From NCBI RefSeq assembly GCF_046105845.1, contig NZ_CP151004.1: DNA of 64,000 bases. One strand, written 5' to 3'. The DNA comes from Escherichia coli. GTDB taxonomy: Bacteria > Pseudomonadota > Gammaproteobacteria > Enterobacterales > Enterobacteriaceae. Position numbers and translations under genes: made by a program. The notes beneath the pieces are model-generated. The model worked only from the letters and a program-made list of their open reading frames with translations, was not told where the DNA came from and searched no databases. This document shows positions 60,351-60,782 of the stretch, one piece after another (within the stretch, counting starts at the first letter, position 1; each line of letters opens with the position of its first letter).

Positions 60351-60782
60351 ATGATACTTTGGTCTATGAAAAAAGAAACCGATATCCGGCGTGGAAAGCA
60401 TTGTGTTTTCCTGATGCATGTTCACCTGGTCTTTGTCACCAAATACCGACGCCAGATTTTTGACCATGACGCGAAAGAAAAACTACGCACTTACTTTTCA
60501 AAGGTATGTGCTGATTTTGAAGCTGAACTGGTTGAAATGGATGGCGAACCAGATCACGTCCATTTGTTAATTAACTATCCTCCCAAACTGGCGATATCCA
60601 GTCTGGTAAACAGCCTCAAAGGCGTATCGAGTAGGTGACTGCGACGAGATCGACCAGATATTGCAGTCAGGTATTACTACAAAGGCGTTTTGTGGAGTCC
60701 TGGCTATTTTGCCAGTAGCTGCGGAGGTGCGCCAATATCCGCCATCCGTCAATACATTGAACAACAGCAAACACCTGGTTAG
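60351..60782 (+). pseudogene. tnpA: IS200-type Y1 (HUH) transposase TnpA interrupted by an in-frame TGA at 60636-60638
   Basis: N-terminal part has the HUH motif (PDHVHLLINYPPKL); the same frame continues after TGA as LRRDRPDIAVRYYYKGVLWSPGYFASSCGGAPISAIRQYIEQQQTPG, carrying the expected C-terminal catalytic Tyr region. Confidence 0.75.

Follow-up and report, generated by a model that had tools for sequence, protein, structure and literature searches.

IS609 of Escherichia coli K-12 is a member of the IS200/IS605 family that lies between ydcO and ydcL, beside insQ (ydcM). It has an intact tnpB of 402 amino acids and, in divergent orientation, a tnpA pseudogene that carries a TGA at codon 96 and is named insP in the K-12 annotation. 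The element considered here lies in ytfA, within a window of 64,000 nucleotides of E. coli DNA (contig NZ_CP151004.1). Nothing else in the window departs from ordinary E. coli chromosome, and no further IS609 copy was found within its 64 kb. At the DNA level, the element is 97.6% identical to the K-12 copy over 1,756 bp, with the same divergent layout, the same TGA at codon 96 and the same intact tnpB. It differs in its locus (ytfA, not ydcM), in keeping TAG where the K-12 copy has CAG at 60780, and in its tnpA haplotype, with 12 other differences in a 461-bp tnpA alignment, one of them A rather than G seven bases upstream of the stop.

A second point of comparison is provided by the intact IS609 copies at the ytfA locus of strains 1190 and RM7190. 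These are orthologous insertions with the same junctions as in the window. They differ in having TTA (leucine) at codon 96, and both are annotated as encoding complete transposases of 143 residues (WP_000604902.1 in 1190 and WP_000604912.1 in RM7190).

IS608 and ISDra2 share with the element the HUH motif and C-terminal tyrosine helix of TnpA, the D-E-D triad of TnpB (an RNA-guided nuclease in those systems), subterminal hairpins, and insertion 3' of a pentanucleotide without duplication. Unlike in IS608 and ISDra2, tnpA is divergent from tnpB instead of co-oriented with it, and it is truncated before the tyrosine. In this respect the element resembles the TnpB-only and non-autonomous derivatives of the IS200/IS605 family, in which the transposase is lost, the ends and tnpB are retained, and mobilization is possible only in trans. 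Unlike these derivatives, it keeps almost the whole of tnpA, interrupted by one nonsense codon and not by a deletion.

The TGA is very probably a genuine, inherited Leu96-to-opal allele of tnpA in a non-autonomous IS609 in ytfA. The allele is old and common, and it is likely to have spread by conversion between copies.

On every defining feature tested, the element belongs to the IS609 type of the IS200/IS605 family (Table 1). TnpB has the D-E-D triad and the zinc-finger cysteines, and TnpA has the HUH and tyrosine sequences of a Y1 HUH transposase, though interrupted by the TGA. Both ends have subterminal imperfect hairpins instead of terminal inverted repeats, and insertion is site-specific. 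In RefSeq, the tnpA product of a same-locus copy (98.5% identical in the tnpA region) is named “IS200/IS605-like element IS609 family transposase”. Similarity to the K-12 copy at ydcM stops near 59089 on one side and near 60844 on the other, and the exact junctions are given by the empty ytfA site of E. coli AF40. The functional (tnpB-sense) strand of the element is the minus strand of the window. On this strand the element adjoins the 3' side of TTTAT, and comparison of the empty with the occupied site reveals no target duplication. The K-12 copy has the same TTTAT flank. TTTAT would thus be both the insertion target and the TAM of TnpB.

Table 1. Features of the ytfA IS609 element and its interrupted tnpA (coordinates of the window).
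Feature	Position	Strand	Basis
IS609 (IS200/IS605 family) element, 1,748 bp, in the TetR-family pseudogene ytfA	59092–60839	-	Empty-site junctions, 1-nt ambiguity
Target pentanucleotide TTTAT (ATAAA on the plus strand), immediately 5' of the element	60840–60844	-	Comparison of empty and occupied sites
Subterminal hairpin, tnpA-side end (probable left end on the minus strand): CCCCGCCCTGAAGGACGGGG	60804–60823		DNA fold, z = -2.99
Subterminal hairpin, tnpB-side end (probable right end): CCACGCCCTGAAGGACGTGG	59102–59121		DNA fold, z = -2.31
tnpB (insQ), intact 402-aa open reading frame; RuvC residues D183/E267/D363, CxxC pairs C334/C337 and C353/C356	59135–60343	-	Profile and structure alignment
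Expected TnpB guide (omega) RNA region, 3' end of tnpB and right end	59079–59262	-	Sub-threshold Rfam matches
tnpA codons 1–95, N-terminal product expected to be made, with HUH	60351–60635	+	Pfam PF01797 (Y1_Tnp) recorded for the product
Premature opal stop, codon 96 TGA	60636–60638	+	Leu codon TTA, changed by T>G at 60637
tnpA remainder past the stop, untranslated: codons 97–143 and TAG, with last core strand LWSPGYFASS and Y135 helix	60639–60782	+	Alignment with IS608 TnpA (2a6m/2vhg)
Inverted-repeat left arm TGACTGC, perfect only with G at 60637	60636–60642		RNA fold, enumeration of substitutions
Inverted-repeat right arm GCAGTCA, separated from the left arm by 20 nt, found only in the Escherichia IS609 lineage	60663–60669		RNA fold, enumeration, outgroups

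The two genes are divergent and separated by 7 bp. TnpB matches NCBIfam NF040570 (385 bits) and aligns with the ISDra2 TnpB structures 8bf8/8exa (E = 3e-52), whose D191/E278/D361 fall on the triad of the window protein. The reading made from the sequence alone had described tnpB as maintained, and the complete frame with its triad and both CxxC pairs agrees with this. Across 35 copies, tnpB variants number 30 synonymous versus 55 non-synonymous, which suggests relaxed constraint. A few copies have a broken tnpB: L079 has a frameshift, L082 an internal stop, and L029 an IS insertion. Overall, the constraint on tnpB looks weak to moderate, not strong. Some tnpB substitutions of the window lineage are rare in the sample, for instance W134C, and the T at 59445 is shared only with copy L005.

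A guide RNA is to be expected at the 3' end of tnpB, in the region of the sub-threshold Rfam matches (HgcC at 24.6 bits, RAGATH-18 at 29.5 bits, sot0042 at 19 bits). The predicted guide would be the reverse complement of 59072–59091. In the empty site, the predicted guide sequence abuts TTTAT.

The insertion lies between ytfB and yjfZ-rplI. Among complete E. coli genomes, the ytfA site is occupied in about 2,347 cases, and 3,241 have a contiguous match to the empty site. The TetR-family gene itself (60840–61200 and 59000–59091) is already an incomplete pseudogene in the annotation of a genome whose site is IS-free (L091). Therefore, the IS609 insertion was not the first cause of ytfA inactivation.

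On the plus strand, the tnpA frame has 143 codons from 60351 to 60782. Its lone internal stop is the TGA at codon 96, which is followed by C at 60639, and its normal stop is TAG (60780–60782). Translation and alignment with IS608 TnpA confirm the earlier description of a frame that is open except for one TGA between the HUH motif and the catalytic tyrosine.

The start of the gene is ambiguous. The window has an ATG both at 60351 and at 60366 (codon 6). Codon 6 is GTG in most E. coli IS609 tnpA copies, and several related copies, including one from an outgroup, Escherichia sp. MOD1, have ATT at 60351–60353. Given these ATT codons, translation may in fact begin at codon 6. In the TGA-enriched sample, A at 60366 goes together with the TGA in all E. 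coli copies that have it; the sole exception is the Escherichia sp. MOD1 outgroup copy (L033), which has TTA. The other end of the frame varies as well. In most IS609 copies, both TGA- and TTA-bearing (L003, L021–L032, L079–L086), CAG replaces TAG at 60780–60782. The tnpA frame of these copies runs through the end hairpin into the flank, and RefSeq describes it as “missing C-terminus”. TAG is kept in the window and in other ytfA copies of the window type.

The TGA is real. That the codon is truly a sense codon, misread through a sequencing or assembly error, was raised by the sequence-only reading as a formal possibility, and no evidence was found in support of it. The exact 95-residue product of the window occurs in 59 blocks of an index of public assemblies. 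Contigs inspected with this product include three NCBI assemblies, several Logan read-set assemblies and ENA metagenomes. Among the index matches, ten places were detailed: one is at yajI and the other nine are at ytfA. Over 7.65 kb, a contig from the ytfA locus matches the window at all but 2 of 7,650 bases (99.97% identity). The same codon is also TGA at 3,369 places in complete genomes. An error is excluded as the source of the TGA by the exact-product matches in independent assemblies, and what probability it retains is vanishingly small. These assemblies bear out TGA.

With leucine restored at position 96, TnpA matches NCBIfam NF033573 (IS200/IS605 family transposase) over residues 13–138, with 149.6 bits against a cut-off of 55. 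The restored protein aligns with the IS608 TnpA structures 2a6m and 2vhg on both sides of the stop. The alignment places the HUH motif at H69-V70-H71 (60555–60563). Y135 (60753–60755) is aligned with Y127 of IS608, which lies within the sequence kqYienq and is the established catalytic residue of that protein.

Translation would normally end after residue 95. The stop removes residues 96–143, and with them the last core strand and the tyrosine helix; the HUH motif is kept. The claim that the 95-residue product lacks the C-terminal region of the catalytic tyrosine is thus borne out by the IS608 alignment. Because the residues with Tyr135 are lost, this copy would be unable to make its own transposase. 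Its tnpA is most likely dead and its IS609 non-autonomous. Of the earlier statement that the transposase is crippled while tnpB is maintained, the first part stands, with a product that ends before Tyr135. The second part holds as a description of this copy and fails as evidence of selection. The ytfA insertion would now be effectively fixed, with ends, subterminal hairpins and tnpB still intact, and the element would probably move only if another copy supplied an intact TnpA.

The event that produced the stop can be read from related copies. In both intact same-locus copies, codon 96 is TTA, in the context GVSSR-L-LRRD. A further comparison is given by 46 related loci from other species, 45 of them informative at codon 96. 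Leucine is encoded by 38 of the 45 (13 TTA, 15 TTG, 8 CTG, 1 CTA and 1 CTC) and methionine by five, all more distant relatives. Aspartate occurs once, in a relative with 37% identity, and TGA once, in a Xenorhabdus pseudogene that has a second stop. Because the same-locus intact copies and 38 of 45 outgroup loci encode leucine, the event is TTA>TGA, a T>G transversion, and by this alignment the ancestral codon is TTA. The sequence-only reading had given arginine for this position in related TnpA proteins (GVSSRRLR) and proposed a CGA>TGA transition. The alignment with the same-locus intact copies and the 46 outgroup loci rules out a CGA ancestry.

The TGA of the Xenorhabdus pseudogene (L058, Xenorhabdus anantnagensis, at about 2786–2788) is an independent occurrence at the homologous codon of a distant IS609-like tnpA. 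Its close relative X. japonica has TTA. Another of the related loci, on a 2,057-bp contig of Streptomyces mutabilis JCM 4400 (L045), is an enterobacterial-type IS609-like tnpA that is 86% identical to the query protein. On so short a Streptomyces contig, this looks like contamination of the assembly.

The allele is far from unique to this copy, contrary to what the earlier reading had implied. The K-12 ydcM-locus tnpA has the identical TGA, annotated “internal stop”, as does every other TGA copy inspected in RefSeq genomes. Allele frequencies were counted in 5,426 complete E. coli genomes with SNP-specific 30-mers, all of whose 28-base seed words span the SNP. This count gives 3,369 places in 2,725 genomes for TGA, and 6,301 places in 3,879 genomes for TTA. 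About one third of the IS609 tnpA copies in complete E. coli genomes therefore carry the stop. It is not a feature of all functional homologues, which the earlier reading had left for an alignment to decide; the intact E. coli copies carry TTA. In fetched examples, TGA was seen at six chromosomal loci (ydcM, ytfA, yedK, gltX, yeaQ and yajI), and TTA at ytfA, yedK, gltX, ydcM and yidH. Both alleles segregate at at least four orthologous loci. The K-12-type 95-residue product is found in 34,672 blocks of the assembly index, at ydcM in every context inspected. The window haplotype itself is absent from complete RefSeq E. coli genomes, in which the closest matches are 99.0% identical for the element and 99.6% for tnpA. 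A literature search found no paper that describes the IS609 tnpA stop. At the annotation level the allele is already known, and it is a widespread inherited leucine-to-stop allele of an ordinary decayed element.

How the same stop came to lie at so many loci is best explained by exchange between copies. A haplotype table of 48 copies is mosaic. The ytfA copies form a graded series: L001 has TTA, the window type has TGA and is otherwise L001-like, L017 has TGA together with K-12-type 3' markers, and L081 has TGA with K-12-type markers on both sides. In pairs of TGA and TTA copies from the same locus (L084 and L086 at yedK, L022 and L089 at ydcM), the element has about 15 differences per kb and the flanks 3–4 per kb. 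The element is thus 4–5 times more divergent than its flanks. In these sequence comparisons, such excess divergence inside the element is the signature of gene conversion between copies, or of allelic replacement. The most likely source of the TGA at ytfA would accordingly be another IS609 copy, through gene conversion or recombination, and not a fresh mutation. Conversion and recombination, on top of vertical inheritance, would be the main route, and a new mutation in the window lineage would not be needed.

The markers nearest the stop qualify this picture. Position 60630, 7 bp upstream of the stop, is G in most TGA copies and A in the window. A conversion tract from a donor with G would have to end within 6 bp, which would favor an independent mutation. 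A TGA donor with A at 60630 does exist, in strain JL05, where this combination is found at yeaQ (1 of 5,426 genomes). With the nearest markers at 60630 and 60742, a short tract and an independent mutation are both compatible with the data.

A mechanism for repeated mutation can be proposed. In this model, T>G at 60637 would recur by template switching in a quasipalindrome, which turns TTACTGC...GCAGTCA into TGACTGC...GCAGTCA. Such hotspots of template switching at quasipalindromes are well established in E. coli (PMC7202029), and small molecules and 5-azacytidine are reported to stimulate the process (PMC7202029, PMC6357072). As in those hotspots, the substitution perfects an imperfect inverted repeat; unlike in them, the arms are only 7 bp long. 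With T, the second pair of the stem is a mismatch, and G completes a perfect 7-bp stem with 5 inner pairs and a 20-nt loop. Among the 1,296 single substitutions possible in the intact tnpA, 55 (4.2%) complete a perfect stem of at least 7 bp and 19 (1.5%) one with at least 5 inner pairs; only 3 of the 60 one-step nonsense changes complete such a stem. Recurrence would explain why the same stop is found on different haplotypes and loci. The TGA is found on two or more backgrounds, with either A or G 7 bp upstream (60630), and the tnpA of strain 1190, intact and at the same locus, differs from that of the window at just two positions, 60366 and 60637. However, the probability of such a coincidence is only about 0.03–0.05, and classic hotspots have longer arms. 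The codon 96 TGA of Xenorhabdus has no repeat partner, so coincidence does occur. Copy L089 at ydcM shares rare markers with the TGA copy L022 and has TTA, a change in a direction that a hotspot does not predict. Moreover, gene conversion is independently evident, from the mosaicism and the excess divergence of the element, and suffices for the distribution. Recurrence at the quasipalindrome is accordingly rather unlikely. A more elaborate version, in which the repeat acts as a recurrent templated off-switch, with repeated T>G changes spread by conversion, a trace of transposase made through UGA-C, and TnpB retained, is unlikely.

Whatever the origin of the stop, its effect could be softened by read-through. 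Bacterial termination at UGA is inefficient when C follows (PMC5289835), in agreement with the sequence-only reading, which had called this a comparatively leaky context. In addition, termination by the K-12-type RF2 is weaker than by the B-type variant (PMC5373646). Leaky or programmed read-through, probably with tryptophan, would yield a trickle of TnpA(L96W), and the TGA would act as an attenuator of transposition. The downstream frame is intact to the normal TAG in the window lineage, and the allele is both frequent and spread over several loci. The good state of the window gene also speaks against decay: it differs from the copy in strain 1190 at only two bases, and its frame is undamaged except for the TGA. 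Against this reading, the intact copies and all close outgroups have leucine at position 96, and the stop is thus derived, not a conserved feature. Further inactivating lesions are found in some TGA copies (Y76* in L022, a frameshift and an ATT start in L079), and in most TGA copies the normal stop is gone as well. Variation in tnpA looks unconstrained, with 5 synonymous versus 19 amino-acid-changing variants when codon 96 and the stop-codon change are excluded, and 1 versus 5 downstream of the stop; the sample is small and deliberately enriched in TGA copies, and such counts are weak evidence. No recoding signal was found near the stop, and the sole local structure holds the stop in its 5' arm, where the ribosome would melt it. 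Some full-length TnpA(L96W) may be made by read-through, but there is no support for a function or for selection, and a role as attenuator is very unlikely. Still further from the evidence is recoding of the UGA as selenocysteine or otherwise, which is improbable in the extreme. The one feature in its favor is a hairpin that starts at the UGA. This places the UGA inside the stem and not upstream of a hairpin, and the fold is only marginally better than that of shuffled sequences (z = -2.1; 8 of 200 shuffled versions fold equally well). Homologues have leucine or methionine at position 96 and never cysteine, and the position is not catalytic. An Rfam scan of 58500–61500 (E<=1) matched no family near the TGA. 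Neither a downstream hairpin nor cysteine homologues, as expected with a SECIS element, were found, and selenocysteine is ruled out by the hairpin geometry, the homologue residues and the Rfam scan.

Other effects of the substitution were considered. A +1 frameshift of the prfB type at AGG-UGA-C was rejected: AGG in the P site allows no +1 re-pairing, and no downstream frame has homology. Creation or loss of a promoter, such as one for the divergent tnpB, was also rejected, as no promoter-like site overlaps 60637 on either strand. At 60633–60638, AGGTTA becomes AGGTGA through the substitution, a string that resembles a Shine-Dalgarno sequence; no in-frame ATG, GTG or TTG lies at a usable distance, and no function is attached to it.

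At face value, the inherited nonsense allele is of little consequence: this is another copy of a transposase pseudogene allele that RefSeq flags “internal stop”. What changes is the record of the allele, with leucine (TTA) ancestral, TGA in about a third of the copies, and both alleles at four or more orthologous loci. IS609 thus offers a handy natural system for studying the loss of TnpA with retention of TnpB in the IS200/IS605 family, and the homogenization of dispersed copies by conversion. If the quasipalindrome idea were true, the element would also be a natural case of a templated mutation hotspot that silences a transposase.
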